Assembly (NCBI GenBank): GCA_963801445.1
Contig: CAWDEW010000010.1
Location: 21,338 to 85,337 of the forward strand
DNA: 64,000 nt
Origin: an uncultured Chloroflexia bacterium
GTDB lineage: Bacteria > Chloroflexota > Limnocylindria > Limnocylindrales > CSP1-4
Direction: 5' to 3'
Shown: in pieces, positions 2,684 to 39,880 of the stretch
Numbering within the stretch: the first letter of the stretch is position 1
Layout of the letters: the number at the start of each line of letters is the position of its first letter
Program-made: the position numbers and the translations under genes
Notes under the pieces: model-generated
What the model saw: only the letters and a program-made list of their open reading frames with translations
Told to the model about the DNA's origin: nothing
Database searches by the model: none

Positions 2684-4405
2684 GTGTCCGCCCCGTCCGC
2701 GCCAGATCCAGCCGGGCTCCTCGCCCCGCTCCGCGGCAGCGTCCGCCGCGCCCTCGAGGCCGCCTGGGAGCGCGCGATCGTCGCGGGCGCGCTGCCGCCG
2801 CTCGGCACGGCCGACCGGCCCGCGGTGGAGATCGAACGGCCCGCCAACCCCGAGCACGGCGACCTCGCCTCGAACCTGGCGATGAAGCTGGCCCGGCCCT
2901 GCCGGATGGCACCCCTGAAGGTCGCCGAGGCCCTCGCGGCCGAGCTGGCGGCCGACGTCGGCCGCCCCGGGGGCCCGGTCGGCGCGGTCAGCGTCGCGGC
3001 TCCCGGCTTCCTCAATCTCCGCGTCGCGGATGGGGCGCTCGAGGACCTCGTCGCCGGGATCGTGGCGGATCCCGCCGCCTGGGGCCGGGTCCGCGCGACG
3101 ACCCCTCGCCGCGTGAACGTGGAGTTCGTCTCCGCGAACCCGACCGGGCCGCTCCACATCGGGAACGCCCGCGGAGCGTTCGTCGGCGACCTCCTGTGCC
3201 GCGTCCTCGAGGCGGCCGGCCACCATGTCACGCGCGAGTACTACTTCAACGACTTCGGAGCCCAGGTCCGGAACCTCGGGGCGTCGGTGGTCGCGATCCA
3301 CCGCGGCGAGCCGCTTCCCGAGGAGGCCTACCGGGGCGCGTACGTCCACGACCTGGCCCGGGAGGTCCCGGCCGACGTCTGGAGCGCGGGCGAGGCGGCC
3401 GACGCGGCGGGAGCCGCTCACGATGCCGCCTGGGTCGTGGGCGAGTGGGCCTCGGAGCGCGTGCGGGCCGGCATCGAGGCCTCCCTGGCCCACCTCGGCG
3501 TCCGCTTCGACGTCTGGAAGTCCGAGAGCTCCCTGTACTCCGAGGGATGGGTCGCGCGGGCGGTGGAGCGGCTCCGTGCCGGCGGCCACCTGTACGAGCA
3601 GGACGGGGCGCTCTGGTTCCGCTCCACGGACTTCGGTGACGACAAGGACCGGGTCGTCCGCAAGTCGAGCGGCGATTTCACGTACTTCGGATCCGACGTC
3701 GGCTACGTCGTCGAGAAGTTCAGCCGACGGTACGACCGCCTGGTCTACATCTGGGGCGCCGACCACCACGGCACCGTGGCCCGGCTCCGGAATGCGGCCG
3801 GCGCCATGGGCTTCGAGCGCGACGCAGTGGAGGTCCTCCTGATCGCCTGGGTTCGCTTCGTCCGCGACGGCATGGAAGTCTCGATGTCCAAGCGGGCCGG
3901 CGAGTTCATCACCCTCGACGAGCTGCTGGCCGAGATCGGCGTGGACGCGGCCCGCTGGTTCTTCGCCGCCCGGGGGCACACGTCCGGGATCGACTTCGAC
4001 ATCGAGCTGGCCAAGAAGCAGTCTGCCGAGAATCCCGTCTATTACGTGCAGTACGCCCACGCCCGGATCGCCTCGATCCTCCGGAAGGCCGCCGAGGCCG
4101 GGCTCCAGCCCGCGACGTCGCTGGAGGGGTGGCTGGCCGGCGGTCCCGAGGCGGCGCTCGCGCGCGCCCTGGCCAGGTTCCCGGAGGTCGTGGAGGACGC
4201 GGCCGCGGCCGAAGAGGCGCAGGGCGTGACCGCGTTCGCGACGGACCTGGCGACGCAGTTCCATGCCTTCTACCGCGACGCCCGGGTCGTGGACCCGGCT
4301 GAGCCCGAACGGTCGCGGGCCCGGCTGGCCCTCGTGCTGGCGGCGCAGCAGACGCTGGCCAACGCCCTCGCGCTCCTGGGGATCGCGGCACCCGAGGCGA
4401 TGTAG
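2684..4405 (+). CDS. argS: Arginine--tRNA ligase
   Basis: VEFVSANPTGPLHIGN (HIGH motif), MSKRAGEF, YVQYAHARIASI; GTG 2684 preceded by GGAGG. Confidence 0.97.
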   Translation: MSAPSAPDPAGLLAPLRGSVRRALEAAWERAIVAGALPPLGTADRPAVEIERPANPEHGDLASNLAMKLARPCRMAPLKVAEALAAELAADVGRPGGPVGAVSVAAPGFLNLRVADGALEDLVAGIVADPAAWGRVRATTPRRVNVEFVSANPTGPLHIGNARGAFVGDLLCRVLEAAGHHVTREYYFNDFGAQVRNLGASVVAIHRGEPLPEEAYRGAYVHDLAREVPADVWSAGEAADAAGAAHDAAWVVGEWASERVRAGIEASLAHLGVRFDVWKSESSLYSEGWVARAVERLRAGGHLYEQDGALWFRSTDFGDDKDRVVRKSSGDFTYFGSDVGYVVEKFSRRYDRLVYIWGADHHGTVARLRNAAGAMGFERDAVEVLLIAWVRFVRDGMEVSMSKRAGEFITLDELLAEIGVDAARWFFAARGHTSGIDFDIELAKKQSAENPVYYVQYAHARIASILRKAAEAGLQPATSLEGWLAGGPEAALARALARFPEVVEDAAAAEEAQGVTAFATDLATQFHAFYRDARVVDPAEPERSRARLALVLAAQQTLANALALLGIAAPEAM

Positions 4406-4430
4406 CCGCCGGGGGCGCGGGATCGGGCGG

Positions 4431-5756
4431 TCAGCCCCGGAGCGCCGCCTGGAGCGCGTCGAGGAGCGAGGCGTTCGAGACGACCAGGACCGTGACGCCG
4501 GCGTGCCCGGACACGGTGGCCGGGCTGACGACGCGCGCGGCCCCGGGCAGCCCCTGCACCGCGAACCCGGCCGCGGCCGCGAACTCGTCGGCGTCCTTCT
4601 GGGTGTCCCAGGCGGTCACGATGGCCAGGGCATAGGCGCCGTTCGGGCCTCGGAGCAGGACGATCCGGTCCCCTCCCCAGCCGGCCGCGGCGGCGCTGCC
4701 GTCGGGGTGACCGCCGACCCCGTCGGCGCCCCGCGCCTGGAGCCAGGCCCGGATCTGGAACTCGCCGAGCGTGTCCTCGGGCGTCGCCTTCCAGCCGGCG
4801 CCCAGCCGGGCGGCCAGGGCCGCGCCTTCGAGCGGCACGGCGACGGGCTCCTCGCCGGCGGTCCACTTCTGCGGGTGGAGGACCTGCTCCGTCGAATCCG
4901 GCAGTCGCCCGAATGCGGCGTCGACGGCCGGCCATCCGCCCGACGAGTGCAGCCCGTTCACGAACGCGAAGCCGGCCGTATAGGGGAACGTGAGCGATTC
5001 GCGCAGGATCGCCGGGACCTTGTCCAGGGCGGCCTGGGCAGCCGGGTCGCCGGCGAGGATCTGGCCCAGCTCGGCCGGCGAGAGGTAGCCGACCATCCAC
5101 TGGCCCAGCACGAACGTGGCGTCACCCTCGACGAAGGCGCGGCGAGCGAGCATGAGGTCCCCCCGCCCGACCGGGGCGTCGAGGATCTTCTCGAGGTCGA
5201 AGCTCTGGTCCTGGAGGGCATGGTCGAACTCGTGGGCGAACGTGGCCTTCTCCGTCGGGCCGACGGTGCCGGTCCGGGCGACGACGTAGATCTGCTTCGC
5301 GGCCGGGTCGTAGAAGCCGGCGACCTGGGCGCCCATCAGGTCCAGGTAGAGCGTCTCGAGCGAGGCGTCCTGGGGCAGGAGGCCGAGGGCCTTGAGCTGC
5401 AGCTCCGACGTCGCGACCTGGTCGGGCGTGTTCTCCTGGGCGAACTGGGCGGTGAACTTCGCGCGCAGCTCCGCCTCGGAGAGGATCGTCGGGTCCAGGC
5501 GCTGCTTGAGGGGCAGGCCCCGGAGCGCGATGACCTGGTCCTCGATCTGGCGGTAGAGGGCGGTCAGCGTCGCGGCGTCGGAAGGACCGGGGGTCCGCCC
5601 TGCGGTCGGCGAAGGGCTCGCGGTCGGAAGCGCGGACGGAGCACCGGATGGCGCTGCCGTCGGTGTCGCGGACTGCGCCTGGCCGGTCGGCCCGGGCCCG
5701 CCGCAGGCGGCAAGGACCAGCGCGACGGCGAGCGCGAGCACGGACCGGCGGGCCAT
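4431..5756 (-). CDS. Lipoprotein with HExxH putative metallopeptidase motif (Hvo_1808/DUF6782-like)
   Basis: Lipobox LAAC, Ser/Pro/Thr linker, AHEFDHALQDQ and downstream EGDA. Confidence 0.7.
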   Translation of the reverse strand: MARRSVLALAVALVLAACGGPGPTGQAQSATPTAAPSGAPSALPTASPSPTAGRTPGPSDAATLTALYRQIEDQVIALRGLPLKQRLDPTILSEAELRAKFTAQFAQENTPDQVATSELQLKALGLLPQDASLETLYLDLMGAQVAGFYDPAAKQIYVVARTGTVGPTEKATFAHEFDHALQDQSFDLEKILDAPVGRGDLMLARRAFVEGDATFVLGQWMVGYLSPAELGQILAGDPAAQAALDKVPAILRESLTFPYTAGFAFVNGLHSSGGWPAVDAAFGRLPDSTEQVLHPQKWTAGEEPVAVPLEGAALAARLGAGWKATPEDTLGEFQIRAWLQARGADGVGGHPDGSAAAAGWGGDRIVLLRGPNGAYALAIVTAWDTQKDADEFAAAAGFAVQGLPGAARVVSPATVSGHAGVTVLVVSNASLLDALQAALRG

Positions 5757-32542: not shown

Positions 32543-35500
32543 ATGGCTCACGCGGGCTCCGACCTCACCCTCCGCACCGGTCGCACCGCCGCCGTTCCCG
32601 ACGGCTCGCGATCGCTCGCGCCCTCGCAGCGCGAGCCCCGCCTCGTGGCCGTCGGGCCGGGCCCAGCGATCCCGGACCAGTCGCCCGTGTTCGGCTCGAC
32701 GATGCAGGTGCACGAGTACCCCGTCCAGGACGGCAAGATCCAGCCACCGCTCCTCCCCGAGGAGACGCTCCAGCGCGACCGCCTGCTCGACTGGCTGCAC
32801 GCAAAGGTCCGCGGGCGGCTCGTGCTGATCCTCGCGGACGCCGGCTACGGCAAGACGACGCTGCTGGCCGACTGGACGCGTCGGACGAGGGTGCGAGCGC
32901 TCTGGTATCGCCTGGACGAGCACGACCGGGATTGGCCGGTGTTCATCCGCCACATCGTCGCGGCCGGGCGCGAGATCGACCCGGGCTTCGCACCCCAGAC
33001 GGAGGCGCTCCTGCGCGAGCTGGGCACCCCGCTCACGGATCGCCCGACCGTCGTTCGGACCCTCCAGGGAGAGCTGCAGGCGTGGGCGACCACCGGAACC
33101 GCGCTCGTCCTGGATGATTGGCACGCCGTCGACGACGTGCCCGAGATCCGCGACATCGTCCGGGAGCTGATCCTCCGCGGCCCGGATCGGCTGACCGTCG
33201 TCATCGCCTCCCGGCGACGCCCCACGCTCCCGGTCGCTCGCCTGCGCGCGATCGGCGAGGCCGCGGAGATCAGCACCGACGATCTCCGATTCGACCGCGA
33301 CGAAACCGAGCGTCTCTTCCGCGACAGCTACAAGCACCCGCTCGAGCGAGACCTGCTCGACGATCTGGCGCGCACGACCGACGGCTGGGCCGCGACGCTG
33401 CGCCTCGTCGAGTCGGCCGTTCGCGGCCGACCGCGCGAGGAGGTGCGCGCGGTGATCCGCAGCCTGTCCGGACGCCACGGCGACCTGCACGACTACCTGG
33501 CCGAGGAGGTCGTGGGGCGCATGTCCCTGGAGCAGCAGTCGTTCGTCGAACGGTGCTCGATCCTCGGGGTCGCGACCGCCGAGCTCGCCGCCGTCGCCGC
33601 CCAGGTCTCGGGCGATGAGGCGCGGTCCCACCTCGACGCCGCCGAGTCCTACGGCCTGCTCGCGCGCCGCGGTCGGACCGGTCAGGCCGGCCGACTCTTC
33701 CACCCGCTGGTCCGCACGTTCCTGGAGGGAAGGCTGCAGGACGCCGTCGGCGACGCGGAGGTCCGGGCCACCCACGCGCGGGTCGCCCGCGCTGCCGAGG
33801 CAGTCTCGTGGGCCGTCTCCGGTCACCATTACGCCGCGGCCGGCCTCAACACCGACGTCGCGCGCGTCCTCGCCGCCGCCGTCCCGACCATCCTCGGATC
33901 GGGCGCTCACGAGGAGGCCCGGCATCTTGAAGAGTACCTAGGCGGATCCCACCCAGGCGCGTGGTCCTACGTTCTGGAGGCGCACCGGAAGCTCCGGCTC
34001 GGCGATGTCGCCGGGGCGATCAACGCGGCTAACGCCATTGCACCTCTCCTAGAGTCCGGCGACATGTCCGTTAGCCGTCCCGTCGCGGCGACAGCTCGGA
34101 TGAATGCCTACTACGGCGCCGGCGAGTTCGAGATGGCATACCTCGAGGCCAAGTCAATCGAGTCGGATGGCAGCGAAGAGATCCCCGCGGAGCTTGCCCA
34201 GTCTGTCGTACTTCTGACCGAGTCGATGGTCGATGGTGATTTGAACGTGACTCTCCGGACGTGTCGCGAATTGGCGCGACGGATGTCGCTGCGGGGGCTC
34301 CACCACTACGAGGGGATCTCGTGGGTTAACGCGGGCTGGATCTGCCGAGTCCTGTTCGACTCCGCTGGAGCGAGAGAAGCCGGGCTCAGGGCCGTCGAAT
34401 GTCTGAGCTTCCACATCGTCCGGCCCTGAGATCAGTACCGCGCTCGCGGTCGCGGCGTGGGCCATGGCCCACTCGGGAGATACCAGCGGCGCAGGAGCCA
34501 CTCTGGCGAGAAGTCTGGAAGGTCAGTTCTGGAGCGCTCGGTTCGAGAGCCTTGTCGAGGCCGCCGACGTCCACAGTCCATATGGAGACGCGACCGAGGC
34601 GCGGCGGTTGCTCGACGACGCGGCCCGGGTTCAGGCGCCGAACCCGCGGCAGCGGCTGTTCCACGACTTGGTCAATGGCGAACACCTTGTTCGGGAGGGC
34701 GACCCGAAGGCGGCGCTTTCGATGCTCGACACCATCGCACATGGCACGCCAACCGGTTACCCGGGCTTCTACGTTCGCCTAGAGCTCGCGAGAGTCCACG
34801 CCCGCGTCCGTCTTGGCTGCCTCTCACGCGAGGACGCCGAGAAGGCAGAGCGGCGAGCCCGGCAGCAAGGGGCGGAGGCGGTGTTACCGCTCCTGCACGG
34901 CTTGATTGCCGTCGCCTGGGACAAGGCAGCACATCTTGACTCGCGAATTATGAGACTCGCTGAGACAGAGCCGGCGCTCGTGACCACGTTTGCCGAGGCA
35001 ATCCTGGACCGCAGCGACAGCTTGTCGGAATCCACTATGTCTGAGCTCGCGCGTGTCGCCCAAGTATTCCCCGAGCGATGGCGGCATGCGGCGAGATGCT
35101 CGATCGCAGATCCCGCGCCGAGCGTCCAGGCCAAGGCCGGATTGCTCCTCGAGGCAGTCGGGGATCGATCGGATGTGGCCAGGCTTCGGGAGCTCAGCCG
35201 ACAGCTTAGGGCGCCCTTTGCGAACCCGGACCTTGGGCGCAAGCTCGCGAGGCGCGTGGCCGACCGCGTAGTGGTTGAGGACCTCGGGCGAGTGTCGGTC
35301 CACGTTGGATCCCGAACCATCTCTGGCAGTTCCATTCGCCGAAAGGCTCTGGCACTCCTCTGCTTTCTCGTCTCTCAAAGAGGCTTTGCTGCCTCAAGAG
35401 ATCAGGTCCTGGAGGCAATGTGGCCCGAGTTTGAGCCCGATCAGGCCCTCAATTCCCTACACCAGACGGCGTACTTCCTCCGCCGCGTATTCGAGCAGCC

Positions 35501-35976
35501 ATTCAGTGAGGACACATCGCCCGGGTATTTGCGCACCTGACGGTGAACTCATCTGGCTCGACAGCGAATTGGTGCAGTCACAGAGCAGAACCTTCCGGGA
35601 TCTGATCACAAGCCAGGGTGGAGAAGACGATCCGATCCTCGTGGACAAGATCACGCTGCTCTATGGTGGCCGCTTCGCTCTCGACTTCCTCTATGACGAG
35701 TGGGCGCGGCCTGCGAGAGAGTCGATGCACACCCGCTACGTGGAGGTGGTAGAGCGGTCAGTCACGTCCGATATGAGGTCCGGCCACTTCGGGAGGGCCA
35801 TCACGATCGCAGGACGGGCTCTGGAAGTGGACCCGAGCTTGGACGAGATGGAGAAGAACCTGGTCAAGCTCTACCAGCTGTCCGGCGCACATCGTGCCGC
35901 GGCTGAGCAGTACGCGCATTACGCAGAGACCATGCGCGAGTTGGGCCTCGAGGTCCCGCCGCTGGATCTTCTTTGA
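32543..35976 (+). CDS. Large MalT-like STAND transcriptional regulator: NTPase, helical/TPR-like sensor, C-terminal wHTH plus BTAD; frameshifts near 34410 and 35537
   Basis: KIQPP..LQRDRLL, ADAGYGKTT, LVLDDWH, GWAATLRL, DYLAEEV; C-terminal LGRVSV..RKALALLCFL..SRDQVLEAMWP and LY.G.F..D..YDEW..AR; single-base removals join three ORF-track pieces (about 1140 aa). Confidence 0.85.
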
Positions 35977-36026
35977 GGGGATCGGTAATCTACGAGCGGT
36001 CCAGTGTGCCTAGGTAGGGTTCCGTA

Positions 36027-36056
36027 TTGACCGAGTAGGAGAACAGTACCTACTGT
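36027..36056 (+). promoter_or_regulatory. Promoter TTGACC-18-TACTGT with inverted repeat AGTAGG-N9-CCTACT
   Basis: TTGACC 36027-36032, AGTAGG 36034-36039, CCTACT 36049-36054, TACTGT 36051-36056; UUCG hairpin CTAGTAC-TTCG-GTACTAG at 36068-36085. Confidence 0.6.
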
Positions 36057-36099
36057 CGCGATGACCACTAGTACTTCGGTACTAGGAGGCCGTGATAGG

Positions 36100-36179
36100 T
36101 TCTTCGGGCGCGATGATGCCCGTCCCTGAACTGGGCACTTAGGGGACGGACGGAGCGGCTAGTGCAACCGACCGGCGAA
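36100..36179 (+). ncRNA. Cyclic di-GMP-II riboswitch aptamer
   Basis: P1 TTCTTCGG/CCGGCGAA; ATGATG kink-turn strand; stem CCGTCCCT/AGGGGACGG; loop GGGCACTT pseudoknotting with AGTGC; GAG; TAGTGCAACCGACC; CGC/GCG pairing where the C. acetobutylicum aptamer has AAC/GUU (recalled consensus). Confidence 0.88.
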
Positions 36180-36200
36180 TAAGCAGGTCGGTTTTCGTGT
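36166..36200 (+). terminator. Intrinsic terminator overlapping the riboswitch 3' end
   Basis: AACCGACC (36166-36173) / GGTCGGTT (36186-36193) stem followed by TTCGTGTT. Confidence 0.7.
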
Positions 36201-36292
36201 TGGGGGGTCACGGAAACCCATTGGAGGGCACACGATGGGTCCCGAGTTCAGCGTCAAGCCCTGGTAGCACGGCAAGCAGCGAGTCTTATCGA

Positions 36293-36385
36293 ATGATGAA
36301 GACGCGATTGCTACAGGTCCTCGCGACCATGGCAACCCTCGCCGCCGCCGTGTTGGCTGGTGGCGCGTCGCTGAGGGGTTTCTAG
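36293..36385 (+). CDS. 30-aa putative signalling peptide precursor MMKTRLLQVLATMATLAAAVLAGGASLRGF
   Basis: Basic N-terminus, hydrophobic core, AGGA, short polar tail; sole ORF between riboswitch and HD-GYP gene. Confidence 0.75.
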   Translation: MMKTRLLQVLATMATLAAAVLAGGASLRGF

Positions 36386-36459
36386 GTACCGAAGTCCCAT
36401 TCCGGCCCGGTACGCTCCCGGCTAGCATCATGACGGGTAGCCGCTGACGCCGAGGACGG

Positions 36460-37840
36460 ATGTCTAGATCCCTCAAGCTATACCTCACGGCGCTCGTGAC
36501 CATAGGCGGTCTTGTGATCGTGGTCACGAGCGTTGTGATTCAGCCCGACCAGCGAATCGCGATCGACCTTTCCGGCTCGAGCGCGGTCAATGTTGCGCTC
36601 GGGCTCGGCTTTTGGACCGTCGTGACTCTCGCCGCCTCGGCGTTCCCTGTCACAATGCCCCGCGGCTCCGTCGTGAGTACGTCGATCGCGCCGATGGTGG
36701 CGGTCATGTACCTCGGAGGTCCAGCGGCTGCTGCGATCGTGGCGACCCTTGGGACGACCGAATTGCGAGAGCTGCGAGGTCGCGTCCCCTGGTATGGAAC
36801 GCTGGCAAACCATATCGGGGTCGCTGTTCCGGCAATAGCCGGTGCCGCGGTGATTCGTTGGATTGGCGGGCCGGGTGCGCCCGGGTTGCACGATTTCGCG
36901 GCGACCCTGTTGGGCGGGCTGGTGTTCCATTCGATGAACATCACGCTCTGCCGCCATCAGTGTTGCTCTGCGCCGCGATGAAGGCGTGGCTGGAGTCGTT
37001 CTCGCCGACCTTCGACTCTACTTCCTGTCGGGACTCGCGATTGTCCCTCTGGCTTGGTTGATGGCCCAGCTCTACAACATCGCCGGCGTCGGCTGGTGGG
37101 CGGTACTGCTCGTTGTTCTTCCTGTCTACGTGATGCGGCTAGCCTTGCGACAAGTCGTCGAGATGCGGGAGATGTTCACCCAGACCATTGGGGCGCTCGC
37201 CGGGGCGGTGGATGCGCGGGATGTCTACACGTCGAACCACAGCCATCGGGTCCAGACGATCGCGGTGGACATCGGGCGCGTGATGAAGCTTCCGGAGCAC
37301 GAGATCGAGGCCCTGGAGTGGGGCGGCCTGCTCCATGACATCGGGAAGATCGGGGTGCCGGACAGCGTCCTGCTCAACCCGGGGAAGCTCACCAAGGAAG
37401 AGCGGGCCTCGATGAACGCGCATCCCGTGAAGGGAGCCAAGATCGTCGCGAAGGTCGAGAAGCTGGCGCCGGAGCTGCCGATCATTCGCCACCACCACGA
37501 GTGGTACAACGGGTCCGGGTACCCGGACCGGTTGATGGGCGACGAGATCCCCAAGCTCGCCCGGGTCCTGCACGTCGCCGATGCTTTCGAGGCGATGATC
37601 GCCCAGAGACCCTACCGGATGAGCCCGTTGACGCATGAGCAGGCGATCGCTGAGCTGCGCAAGTTCTCGGGGATCCAGTTCGACCCGGTCGTCGTCGACG
37701 CCTTCGTCAAGACGAAGTGGGCCGACGGGTTCGGGGATTTCAACCGCTCGCACCCGATGCGAACCGTGCCCTACCTCGCCCAGGCCGCGAGCCGGATGGC
37801 GCCGCCGCCCGGGGACGCGGCTCCAGCCGACGCCTCCTGA
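36460..37840 (+). CDS. Membrane-anchored HD-GYP c-di-GMP phosphodiesterase; +1 frameshift near 36950
   Basis: About 6-7 N-terminal TM helices; HSHRV, LHDIGKIG, HHHEWYNGSGYP, ARVLHVADAFEAM; GAGGA RBS; dropping one T in ctc-t-gcc gives ITLAAISVALRRDEGVAGVVLAD. Confidence 0.92.
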
Positions 37841-37852
37841 GCTCGACCGCGA

Positions 37853-39880
37853 GTGCTGTTCGCGGCTCTGATCGTCGGGTTCCTGGCCGGGATCGCGGCC
37901 GGCGGCAAGGTCGACAACCTTCTCGCGGTCCGCCTGCGCTGGGCGCTGGTGATCTTCGGCGCGGTCGCGCTCCGCCTCGGCACCGAGGCCGCGCTCTCTC
38001 GAGGCATCGCCGTCGCCGACCAGCTGCGGGTGCCGCTGCTGGGTGCCGCGTACCTCGTGCTGGCCGTCGGCCTCTGGGTGAACCGATCGCGCCCGGGGAT
38101 GACCCTGGCCCTCGTCGGGATCGGTGCCAACGCGTTCGCGATCCTGGTGAACGGCGGCTACATGCCGGTCTGGAGCGCCAGCCTCATCGCGGCGGGCTTC
38201 CCGGCCGACGAGCCGCTCTCGGCGATCCACAAGGTCCTCTCGGCGGCCGACGTGAGCTTCCTGACGTCGGCGGGGCCACTGGGCGACATCATCCCGATCG
38301 GCCTGGCGCCCCTCCGGAACGTCCTCTCGATCGGCGATGTGCTGCTGGCCGCGGGCCTGGCCTTCTTCCTGTTCGCGAGCCTGGTCCGCCGCCCGGGCGA
38401 GCTGGAGACGCTCGCCGAGCGCGTCCGCACGGGGCCGCTCCCGGCCCGCCCCGTCGCCCTCGGCGGAGTGGTCGCAGACGAGGCGTCACGCACGGTACGG
38501 CCCGGGACCGGGCTGGCCGGCGGGGTGCTGGACGCGGCGTCGGCCATGGACCGCCCGATGATGCTCGGCGGCTCGGGGGCCGGGATCGCCGTGCCGTCGC
38601 CGACCCGGGCCGTGGTGCTCCGCCGGCCGGTCGGGATCCGGGAGCGGGCGCTGCGCCACCCGTACGTGCGGCTGGCGTTGAACGGACCCTTCACCGCGCT
38701 CTGGACGGGCCAGGTCGTCAGCCTGTTCGGGGATCGGGTACACCAGATCGCCCTGGCCGCGCTGGTGCTCGGGACGACCGGGTCGGCGCTGGCGGCGGGC
38801 CTCGTGTTCGCGGCTGCCGCCCTCCCGAACCTCCTGTTCGGTCCGTTCGCCGGCGTGCTCGTGGACCGCTGGAACCAGAAGCACGTGATGATCGCCAGCG
38901 ACCTCATCCGGGCCGCGATCGTGCTGTCCATCCCGGCCAGCACGGCAATGAACGTCACCCTGGTCTATCCGCTGGTCTTCGTGCTCACGACCGTCTCGAT
39001 CTTCTTCCGCCCCGCGCGGACCGCCGTGATCCCGCGCCTCGTGCGGGAGGACGAGCTGACCGCCGCGAACTCCGCGACGTGGATCGGCGAGACCCTCGCC
39101 GATGTCGCGGGCTACCCGATCGCCGGGCTGTTCGTGGGGGTCCTCGGCGGTGCGGTGGCGGTGGCCTTCTGGGTCGACTCGGCGACCTACGTCGCGTCGG
39201 CCGCGCTGATCGCGGTGACGGCCATCCCGCCCGTGGTGCGGACGCTGGCTGATGCCGGCAAGGGCATCGCGGGCTTCCGCCGTGACCTGGTCGCCGGCTG
39301 GACCTTCCTCCGTCACGAACCCGTCCTGCTCGCGAACACGCTCCAGGCGATCGTCGGGCAGGCGACGATCGGCGTCGCGATCACGCTCGTGCCCGTCTTC
39401 GCCCGGGACGTCCTGAGGGATTCCTCGCTCCCGTGGGAGACCACCTACGCCTACATGGAGGCGGTCCTCGGGATGGGCAACCTGATCGGCGGCTTCTTCA
39501 TCGGCCTGCTGGGCGCCCGGCTCGCGAAGGGGCGGATGGTGATCGTCGGCTACGTCGCCTACGGCCTGCTCGTCGCCGGCTTCGCATTCGCCGGCAACGT
39601 GGCCATCGCGATCGGGCTCTCGTTCGGGATGGGGATCGCGAACATGGTGTTCGTCATCCCGACCCAGACGCTCTTCCAGGAGCGAACCCCGAACGAGCTC
39701 CTGGGGCGAGTCGTGAGCTTCCGCTTCTCGGCGGTCTTCGGCGCGATGACGCTCGCGATGGCGGTCGGGGGGATCCTCGGCGAGGCGTTCGGTGCGCCGC
39801 TCGTCCTCGGGGCGTTCGGCCTCCTGACCGCGTTCGCCGGGCTGGCCGGCACGGCAAGTCGCCCACTGCGCGACGCGTAG
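37853..39880 (+). CDS. DUF5317 domain fused to an MFS transporter
   Basis: N-terminal GIGAN..ILVNGGYMPV and LGDIIP...VLSIGDVLL (DUF5317 hallmarks); C-terminal FTALWTGQVVSLFGD, GVLVDRWN, LLGRVVS (12-TM MFS). Confidence 0.85.
   Translation: MLFAALIVGFLAGIAAGGKVDNLLAVRLRWALVIFGAVALRLGTEAALSRGIAVADQLRVPLLGAAYLVLAVGLWVNRSRPGMTLALVGIGANAFAILVNGGYMPVWSASLIAAGFPADEPLSAIHKVLSAADVSFLTSAGPLGDIIPIGLAPLRNVLSIGDVLLAAGLAFFLFASLVRRPGELETLAERVRTGPLPARPVALGGVVADEASRTVRPGTGLAGGVLDAASAMDRPMMLGGSGAGIAVPSPTRAVVLRRPVGIRERALRHPYVRLALNGPFTALWTGQVVSLFGDRVHQIALAALVLGTTGSALAAGLVFAAAALPNLLFGPFAGVLVDRWNQKHVMIASDLIRAAIVLSIPASTAMNVTLVYPLVFVLTTVSIFFRPARTAVIPRLVREDELTAANSATWIGETLADVAGYPIAGLFVGVLGGAVAVAFWVDSATYVASAALIAVTAIPPVVRTLADAGKGIAGFRRDLVAGWTFLRHEPVLLANTLQAIVGQATIGVAITLVPVFARDVLRDSSLPWETTYAYMEAVLGMGNLIGGFFIGLLGARLAKGRMVIVGYVAYGLLVAGFAFAGNVAIAIGLSFGMGIANMVFVIPTQTLFQERTPNELLGRVVSFRFSAVFGAMTLAMAVGGILGEAFGAPLVLGAFGLLTAFAGLAGTASRPLRDA

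Follow-up and report, generated by a model that had tools for sequence, protein, structure and literature searches.

What does a reading frame of about thirty codons, lodged immediately upstream of a gene for a cyclic di-GMP (c-di-GMP) phosphodiesterase, contribute to the cell that carries it? The question is raised by a 64,000-nucleotide (nt) stretch of DNA from an uncultured Chloroflexia bacterium of the Limnocylindrales (GenBank assembly GCA_963801445.1, contig CAWDEW010000010.1, positions 21,338 to 85,337 of the forward strand), hereafter the window, in which positions 36293–36385 of the plus strand read ATGATGAAG...GGTTTCTAG, with the translation MMKTRLLQVLATMATLAAAVLAGGASLRGF and a TAG stop. 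The position and translation of this open reading frame (ORF), here called ORF2, agree exactly with those given in an initial annotation of the window DNA, and comparison with related genomes indicates that ORF2 is a real and strongly conserved protein-coding gene. In our judgement its product is probably a membrane-inserted partner or ligand of two membrane proteins encoded just downstream, the MASE9 sensor portion of an HD-GYP phosphodiesterase and DUF5317, and its translation would also unmask the ribosome-binding site of the HD-GYP gene.

A 29-codon gene with the codon statistics of a protein

ATG codons at 36293 and 36296 are both usable as ORF2 starts in the window, and in the GTG-ATG context of the window and its closest relatives the extra codon could likewise serve as a start. 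Because most relatives have a non-start codon ahead of the conserved ATG, we place the conserved start at 36296, which gives a product of 29 amino acids (aa). The frame had been described as the tail of a 62-aa ORF with a TTG start; ORF2 is indeed the end of a 62-aa ORF (36197–36385), but that ORF starts with GTG, and TTG is its second codon. The signal-peptide-like layout recognised at the outset is borne out, with Lys and Arg within residues 1–7, a hydrophobic stretch (Kyte–Doolittle mean of 1.85 over the 19 residues 8–26), and AGGA followed by a five-residue tail. The peptide contains no Cys, and its Shine–Dalgarno (SD) sequence is weak in the window (GAG about 12 nt upstream). Gene callers usually miss ORF2, and some 29-aa orthologues are catalogued as 'hypothetical protein' (exact look-up). 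A protein homology search with a 40-aa ORF2 query returned no candidate, Pfam and NCBIfam gave no match for any peptide of the family described below, and a literature search found no paper describing it.

Orthologues of the HD-GYP protein (62–75% identity) were collected from 80 species genomes, nearly all of them labelled Limnocylindria, Limnocylindrales or 'uncultured Chloroflexia'. An ORF ending in GG[AG][ST]xxx[FW]-stop lies equally far from the enzyme gene in 65 of the 72 orthologous loci with upstream DNA; among the remaining seven, six have near-variants of ORF2 (several in long-read assemblies with indels elsewhere) and one lacks it. The length is constant at 29 codons, and the start is ATG in 55/66 loci, GTG in four and a TTG one codon upstream in four more. 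Entropies of codon positions 1, 2 and 3 are 0.90, 0.57 and 1.60 bits over 58 distinct sequences. G22 and G23 never vary and A21, A24 and S25 hardly do, and at these residues the third codon positions are near random (1.5–1.96 bits); therefore, the purifying selection acts on the protein and not on the RNA. The consensus opens with M-K-x-R-[LVFI]-x-R, continues with 12 variable residues, hydrophobic or small, and closes with [LI]-A-G-G-A-S-[LF]-[KR]-G-F; 111 of 114 peptides have an N-terminal net charge of +2 or +3.

Synteny extends this picture. The MASE9-HD-GYP gene and a gene for DUF5317 fused to an MFS transporter stand 3′ of ORF2 in essentially all Limnocylindria-type loci, the DUF5317-MFS gene being syntenic in 77 of 80. 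A degenerate DNA pattern for the ORF2 C-terminus retrieved more than 119 loci from 185,579 species genomes, all in metagenome-assembled genomes (MAGs) labelled Chloroflexota, and each of the 116 newly analysed pattern loci is flanked by genes of the same cassette. Short length, the weak SD in the window and the neglect by gene callers could suggest a chance ORF of a GC-rich intergenic region, but conservation and codon statistics across the relatives refute this reading, to which we assign a negligible probability. The initial annotation had staked its proposal on conservation of the ORF in orthologous loci, and the ORF is kept there with protein-like codon statistics. It had also expected a conserved (L/I)AxGA core with a variable tail upstream of orthologous HD-GYP genes: the core is there, with A21, G22, G23 and A24 near-invariant, but the tail does not vary: of 110 distinct peptides, about 90% keep S-L-[KR]-G-F, and LRGF or LKGF is seen in 91.

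Related peptides precede MASE9 genes in other phyla

Stand-alone homologues of DUF5317 led to the Actinomycetota locus L197, which holds a 35-aa gene (MADFLGKHPRTGRVVLLACFVVSFALASGAGKKWH) followed, in this order, by genes for MASE9-HD-GYP, DUF5317 and MFS, the last two separate and adjacent. Similar peptides are encoded directly 5′ of MASE9 genes in other Actinomycetota (some with two tandem copies), in Coriobacteriia (including a MAG labelled Slackia heliotrinireducens, L226), in Bacillota (e.g. MKTTFIRVLIALACLILAGGATYKW) and in Chloroflexia. Members of the family have 24–35 aa, with a basic N-terminus, one hydrophobic helix and the motif [LVA]-A-[GSA]-G-A-x-x-[KR]-[WG], after which the peptide ends within 0–3 residues. 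With a hidden Markov model built from Limnocylindria ORF2 alone, the top five of 13,667 ORF tails from other phyla all lie directly 5′ of MASE9 (best E 1.8e-5). In all 13 members examined, the start codon is ATG and the SD is good. One Bacillota peptide matches the LptM signal sequence, at a sub-threshold score only.

In Chloroflexia of the Roseiflexaceae type (L201, L284, L285 and L286), a peptide of the form MKW...AAGA[ND]xKWG precedes a MASE9-GAF-histidine kinase-receiver protein. MASE9 is thus joined there to a histidine-kinase output, and therefore the module is not tied to c-di-GMP output. DUF5317 is found 1–2 kb upstream in these four loci, on the other side of the peptide gene, and the peptide still adjoins MASE9. 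Among non-Limnocylindria loci as a whole, the peptide is present in 13 of the 15 MASE9 loci with DUF5317 and in one of the 28 without it (Fisher p 3.8e-8, a value that ignores phylogeny). Because the peptide genes precede MASE9 where DUF5317 is nearby, the peptide, MASE9 and DUF5317 most likely cooperate in the membrane.

The same association admits a different reading, namely that ORF2 is an accessory subunit of the DUF5317-MFS transporter, comparable to AcrZ or KdpF, with MASE9-HD-GYP merely a co-regulated neighbour. That the peptide tracks DUF5317 rather than MASE9 alone is in keeping with such a role, as is the predicted placement of the conserved parts of peptide and DUF5317 on the same, outer membrane face. 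However, DUF5317 loci without MASE9 (L202 and L203) have no peptide, the peptide gene always adjoins the MASE9 gene on its 5′ side even with DUF5317 1–2 kb away, and MFS was not detected in several lineages that carry peptide, MASE9 and DUF5317. Locus L149 (reverse strand; 3706–5500 after reverse complementation) is also at odds with it, since there the peptide has been duplicated with MASE9 and not with DUF5317. This tandem, diverged duplication of the peptide and MASE9 unit has the order riboswitch, uORF1 (a ten-residue mini-ORF, treated below), ORF2a, a 226-aa stand-alone MASE9, ORF2b overlapping the MASE9 stop, and MASE9-HD-GYP, and ORF2b has no leader of its own. We consider a transporter subunit unlikely.

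DUF5317 as a candidate partner of the peptide

Across an alignment of 46 DUF5317 members, residues G18, N93, M104, P105, D145, S159, G161 and D162 are invariant. An AlphaFold2 model (predicted local distance difference test score 94.5) contains five helices, the fourth and fifth being separated by a beta region, and N93, M104, P105, D145, S159, G161 and D162 cluster in it where helix 4 ends, within the beta region and where helix 5 begins. By the positive-inside rule, these residues and the conserved end of the peptide may both lie at the outer membrane face. A Foldseek search of the model against the PDB gave no match with E ≤ 0.001, whether to LspA, to presenilin-type or to other solved proteases, a PDB sequence search with DUF5317 gave nothing, and a literature search found nothing on DUF5317; with this confident model and with the two invariant Asp (D145 and D162) beside N93, M104 and P105, the domain is a candidate for a new membrane-enzyme fold.

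Peptidase_A8 is the second most frequent Pfam match among DUF5317 members and aligns over the catalytic half of the Peptidase_A8 model, at sub-threshold scores in 4 of the 46 (best 19.1 bits against a cutoff of 25, E 0.0016). An LspA-like identity was rejected, the PDB sequence and Foldseek searches being negative and Peptidase_A8 matching below threshold only. A peptidase role for DUF5317 is possible but unsupported.

A c-di-GMP-II riboswitch and a second tiny ORF in the leader

The leader of ORF2 begins with an aptamer of the c-di-GMP-II riboswitch class (Table 1), which was recovered in 16 of 16 relatives tested by Rfam (54.4–68.8 bits) and whose core motifs are present in 106 of 108 loci. 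The conserved ACCGACC at the 3′ end of the aptamer doubles as the 5′ arm of a terminator-like hairpin, the stem and U-tract of which are kept in the leader alignment. Because ACCGACC is common to aptamer and hairpin, ligand binding should block termination, and the hairpin is thus the predicted expression platform of an ON riboswitch. In Clostridia, c-di-GMP-II riboswitches are ON switches ahead of pilus and adhesin genes. The leader here shares with them the aptamer class (RF01786) and a terminator-type platform, but it occurs in Chloroflexota, before a c-di-GMP-degrading enzyme, and two conserved tiny ORFs intervene. No riboswitch was found in the non-Limnocylindria loci L197, L200 and L201. 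Soil metatranscriptome contigs of close relatives (runs X9 and X11) span the riboswitch, the terminator and uORF1 (window 36024–36258), and one of 513 nt extends about 255 nt further, through the expected position of ORF2; the contigs are a weak indication that the riboswitch-uORF1 leader is transcribed in these relatives.

uORF1 is the first of the two tiny ORFs, and the SD ahead of it (AAGGAGGA) is very strong across the 59 aligned leaders. The ORF is present in 63 of 66 loci, with 10 codons in 49, a GTG start in 50/63 and a TAG stop in 51/63, and its consensus is M-x-P-[ED]-x-x-x-K-[GAP]-[WFY]-stop. The codon for Pro3 is free at its third position, and therefore uORF1 also appears to be selected as a peptide. 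It has no membrane segment, and its ending resembles that of ORF2, both closing with K-G-[WF] and then TAG. In two loci, L010 (1216–1290) and L012 (3186–3272), uORF1 is expanded to three [ST][VI]TKG[FW] units (SSVTKGF or [AS]ITKGW), and in L012 the repeat motif is preserved and the linkers between repeats have diverged. No uORF1-like mini-ORF was found in the other phyla sampled. Between the ribosome-binding site of ORF2 and the body of uORF1 no consistent pairing was seen (mean 1.9 of 17 nt), and only the short gap between the two ORFs (4–33 nt) suggests that they are coupled.

A palindrome stands directly before the aptamer, and the matching pattern (C)TAGTAC-N4-GTACTAG(GAAG) is kept in the 59-locus alignment; its sequence would suit an operator or a stabilising stem-loop at the 5′ end. 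The half-site of this palindrome, CTAG(G)TAC, reappears at the ORF2 stop codon.

Predicted coupling of ORF2 translation to the HD-GYP gene

About 75 nt separate ORF2 from the enzyme gene, and in many of the loci the HD-GYP SD is predicted to pair with the final codon of ORF2 and its stop (UUCUAG, then GUAC). Over 51 diverse loci, the SD window is mostly paired, with its partners peaking at positions −3 to +14 around the ORF2 stop, and at least three of the nine SD nucleotides pair with the ORF2-stop region in 61% of these loci. The third-position entropy is reduced in the last three ORF2 codons (0.83, 1.07 and 0.74), and the stop is TAG in 51 of 58 loci, against roughly 27% TAG among long ORFs; pairing of the ORF2 end with the HD-GYP SD would explain both the reduced third-position freedom and the TAG preference. 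From these sequence features, translation of ORF2 probably unmasks the HD-GYP ribosome-binding site. Fusion of ORF2 to the N-terminus of the enzyme, whether through read-through or frameshifting, was ruled out, the spacer length modulo 3 being spread 11/23/17.

If coupling were the whole of its function, ORF2 would be a purely cis-acting leader ORF in which the act of translation matters, either by coupling or because the K-G-F-TAG nascent chain stalls termination, the peptide having no function once released. The predicted pairing of the HD-GYP SD with the ORF2 stop region, the enrichment of TAG stops, the K-G-[WF] ending common to both tiny ORFs and the added constraint that the last three codons of ORF2 show at the nucleotide level would all suit such a leader. 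Selection on amino acids, however, spans the N-terminal Lys/Arg residues and the whole A-G-G-A-S block, with synonymous change free, and the hydrophobic helix and the constant length are left unexplained. Homologous peptides persist, moreover, in phyla without riboswitch or uORF1 and with different spacers, and ORF2b of L149 has no leader. A 29-residue chain is still in the exit tunnel at termination, and therefore force-sensing of membrane insertion is impossible. Conservation in ORF2 is not confined to tunnel residues and cis context, as it would be in a ribosome-arrest leader, but takes in the N-terminal Lys/Arg and the hydrophobic body too. A role in cis alone is very unlikely, although cis coupling may act in addition to the peptide.

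Two further observations concern the spacer itself (36386–36459 in the window). Here and in the relatives, an inner hairpin carries a conserved SD-like GGAGGGATTAGAGT in its loop (TAgAGT conserved). The arms of this inner hairpin covary by eye, yet RNAalifold gives no consensus for them; the element could be an uncharacterised RNA.

Proposed role of the peptide

Taken together with MASE9 and DUF5317, ORF2 would be a single-span peptide with its basic N-terminus in the cytoplasm and its A-G-G-A-S-L-[KR]-G-F end at the outer membrane face. There the MASE9 sensor would have the peptide as its partner or self-made ligand, and DUF5317 may bind, position or process the conserved outer-leaflet motif of the peptide. 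In Limnocylindria, high c-di-GMP would block the terminator and allow the leader to be transcribed. uORF1 and then ORF2 would be translated, and the ribosome finishing ORF2 would unfold the hairpin in which the ribosome-binding site of the HD-GYP gene is masked. The phosphodiesterase would in this way be made together with the peptide and would lower c-di-GMP, in a negative feedback. A membrane-resident modulator of the HD-GYP sensor had been offered as the alternative reading in the initial annotation, and it is the one that best fits the comparative data.

MgrB and SafA, which act on PhoQ in E. coli and Salmonella, are small bitopic membrane regulators of sensor proteins. ORF2 falls within the size and topology of such single-span regulators, having fewer than 50 aa and a single hydrophobic helix, and would share with them a short functional extracytoplasmic end, action on a membrane sensor and feedback expression. 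It differs from them in that it has no sequence relation to either, that its gene lies directly 5′ of the presumed target, and that DUF5317 joins as a third membrane protein. The target would also be different, namely MASE9 with c-di-GMP hydrolysis (or a kinase in Chloroflexia) instead of PhoQ, and expression is placed under a riboswitch. The existing literature on MASE9 is compatible with such a role, as Galperin and Chou proposed that MASE9 binds a ligand within the membrane (bioRxiv 10.1101/2021.11.05.467447). The MASE9-HD-GYP phosphodiesterases in that work include T. maritima TM1467 and S. venezuelae HdgA (bioRxiv 10.1101/2021.11.05.467447), which have the same architecture as the enzyme downstream of ORF2. 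A text search of this MASE9-defining paper (bioRxiv 10.1101/2021.11.05.467447) found no DUF5317, no riboswitch and no associated small peptide, and it was the only paper on MASE9 that a literature search returned.

Several points weigh against a membrane partnership of this kind. Translation of ORF2, its insertion into the membrane and its binding are predictions from sequence. The conservation of ORF2 shows no significant helical periodicity (p 0.44), and therefore a conserved packing face of the helix is not demonstrated. In L206 (Sumerlaeota) and L232, no peptide was detectable beside MASE9 and DUF5317, and the significance of the co-occurrence takes no account of shared ancestry. A pure role as a membrane subunit does not explain why uORF1 shares the ending of ORF2. 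As to coupling, only some 60% of loci are predicted to form the hairpin, the SD of the window itself pairs weakly (1.8 of 9 nt), and the spacer between ORF2 and the HD-GYP gene yielded no consensus structure in RNAalifold.

The shared ending of the two tiny ORFs bears more directly on the idea that ORF2 is the precursor of an exported signal, of the Phr or Agr kind. Cut after A-x-G-A by signal peptidase I, or between the glycines of L-A-G-G by DUF5317 in the role of a membrane aspartyl peptidase, the precursor would release the tail SLRGF or GASLRGF, possibly with help from the fused MFS, and MASE9 would sense the tail as an autoinducer that sets c-di-GMP hydrolysis. The sequence is compatible with cleavage after G-G-A or at the lipobox-like L-A-G-G. 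In all lineages the peptide follows the n/h/c layout of Sec signal peptides and has a small residue at both −1 and −3 (A-x-G-A), and a few DUF5317 members have the sub-threshold Peptidase_A8 similarity given above. uORF1 presents the K-G-[WF] ending without a membrane segment and is tripled in L010 and L012 in the manner of multi-copy precursors; because of this ending and the triple repeats, the idea of a short active tail stays alive.

Known peptide systems offer partial parallels. In the staphylococcal Agr system, the propeptide AgrD is accompanied by the membrane peptidase AgrB and the polytopic receptor AgrC. The combination of a small peptide, a polytopic protein of roughly 180 aa with catalytic-looking residues (two of them invariant Asp) and a polytopic sensor domain resembles this arrangement. 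Unlike AgrD, however, ORF2 has no Pfam match and no Cys/Ser for a thiolactone or lactone ring; its tail is conserved where that of AgrD is hypervariable, it begins with a signal-anchor and not with an amphipathic helix, the output is HD-GYP, and the DUF5317 members match DUF5317 and not AgrB. The Phr precursors of the Bacillus Rap-Phr systems have 38–57 aa and, like ORF2, a signal-peptide-like body followed by a basic C-terminal pentapeptide. The proposal of a Phr-like pentapeptide in the initial annotation is nevertheless not supported by the comparison, since the tail is not variable or polymorphic, no pro-region is present in the 29 aa, and there is no Rap/RRNPP-type receptor gene, whether an overlapping Rap/TPR gene or another; the ORF2 family, moreover, is found in Chloroflexota, Actinomycetota and Bacillota beside MASE9/DUF5317. 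Enterococcal sex pheromones are cut from lipoprotein signal peptides by LspA plus Eep. ORF2 is similarly lipoprotein-signal-like, its L-A-G-G corresponding to the lipobox L-A-G-C, and a hydrophobic fragment of it might be active in the membrane; yet it lacks the +1 Cys (Gly in 58/58 loci) and a mature lipoprotein, and DUF5317, unlike LspA, has Peptidase_A8 similarity below threshold only and no fold match.

More generally, a tail that is nearly invariant within the class and similar across phyla is unlike known pheromones. The lack of Cys makes thiolactone or lipid modification impossible, the fixed length of 29 aa, with the tail directly after the c-region, leaves no pro-region, and the DUF5317 model, although confident, has no Foldseek match to a protease and the PDB sequence search was empty. 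The describers of MASE9 also found its periplasmic loops to be poorly conserved (bioRxiv 10.1101/2021.11.05.467447). An exported signal precursor is thus possible, though doubtful on this balance. We hold with little confidence a broader version, in which peptide, MASE9 and DUF5317 form a self-contained peptide-signalling circuit wired into c-di-GMP turnover: DUF5317 would be a new family of membrane aspartyl peptidases, with a fold unseen in the PDB, that cuts ORF2 between the glycines of L-A-G-G-A, and the K/R-W/F tail or the leftover helix would be the MASE9 ligand. In Limnocylindria this circuit would be nested in a c-di-GMP-II riboswitch feedback loop, and uORF1 would encode the tail a second time, without a leader, in a form open to export by the fused MFS.

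c-di-GMP enzymes and kinases commonly receive their input through MASE-type membrane sensor domains, and the MASE9-defining paper names no ligand; a micropeptide that accompanies both MASE9 and DUF5317 across three or more phyla is a testable candidate for the sensor input. Linkage to the peptide also gives a first functional handle on DUF5317, which has no assigned function and no solved relative, and adds a new family, called now and then as 'hypothetical protein', to the poorly annotated world of small proteins. A leader that combines a riboswitch with two tiny ORFs and a ribosome-binding site under a mask of structure would, if true, be a compact c-di-GMP feedback controller. Experiments are feasible because one carrier (L226) appears to be a cultured species, Slackia heliotrinireducens.

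Neighbouring genes of the cassette

Table 1 Features of the ORF2 locus, in window coordinates.
Feature	Positions	Strand	Details
STAND-type regulator gene (AAA_16 NTPase, helical region, winged helix-turn-helix Trans_reg_C, BTAD)	32543..35976	+	Pfam
Perfect palindrome/hairpin CTAGTAC-TTCG-GTACTAG	36068..36085	+	Directly 5′ of the aptamer; read from the sequence
c-di-GMP-II riboswitch aptamer (RF01786)	36097..36182	+	Rfam 61.8 bits against a gathering score of 53.5; E 1.9e-12
Terminator-like hairpin AACCGACC...GGUCGGUU, then UUUUCG	36166..36199	+	RNAfold −16.6 kcal/mol
uORF1, 10 aa, MGPEFSVKPW-stop	36235..36267	+	Between terminator and ORF2; strong SD GGAGGG at 36223–36228
ORF2 micropeptide gene, 29 aa, MKTRLLQVLATMATLAAAVLAGGASLRGF-stop	36296..36385	+	Alternative start at 36293 gives 30 aa
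Structured spacer, predicted long irregular hairpin	36383..36459	+	From the ORF2 stop (or just after) to the HD-GYP SD; per-sequence RNAfold
MASE9-HD-GYP c-di-GMP phosphodiesterase gene	36460..37840	+	Pfam HD_5, 2.2e-38; ORFs 36460–36981 and 36986–37840
DUF5317 (residues 1 to about 180) fused to MFS_1/MFS_3 transporter, 675 aa	37853..39880	+	Pfam; DUF5317 part 37853–38422

The HD-GYP gene of the window is frameshifted between about 36952 and 36961. Its orthologues are one protein of roughly 470 aa, and that of L014, a single protein of 472 aa, aligns to frame 1 of the window and then to frame 2. For the assignment of the N-terminus to MASE9 (PF20972), Pfam gives a mixed picture: L014 (30.2 bits against a cutoff of 24.3) and the Bacillota locus L207 (49 bits) score above the threshold, but Pfam gave no MASE9 match for L011 or for the frameshifted 173-aa piece of the window (E ≤ 0.01). 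The N-termini of L014, L011, L207 and the window align with one another and share the invariant residues V55, N110 and N156.

The STAND regulator gene is likewise split in the window, over three frames with breaks at 34429–34464 and 35275–35540. The frameshifts in the HD-GYP and STAND genes are probably assembly indels, the alternative being recent pseudogenisation. The STAND regulator is absent from Actinomycetota L197, the one non-Limnocylindria locus checked for it. It is present 5′ of the cassette in all Limnocylindria-type loci that extend that far, and it forms a single frame in L001 and L042.

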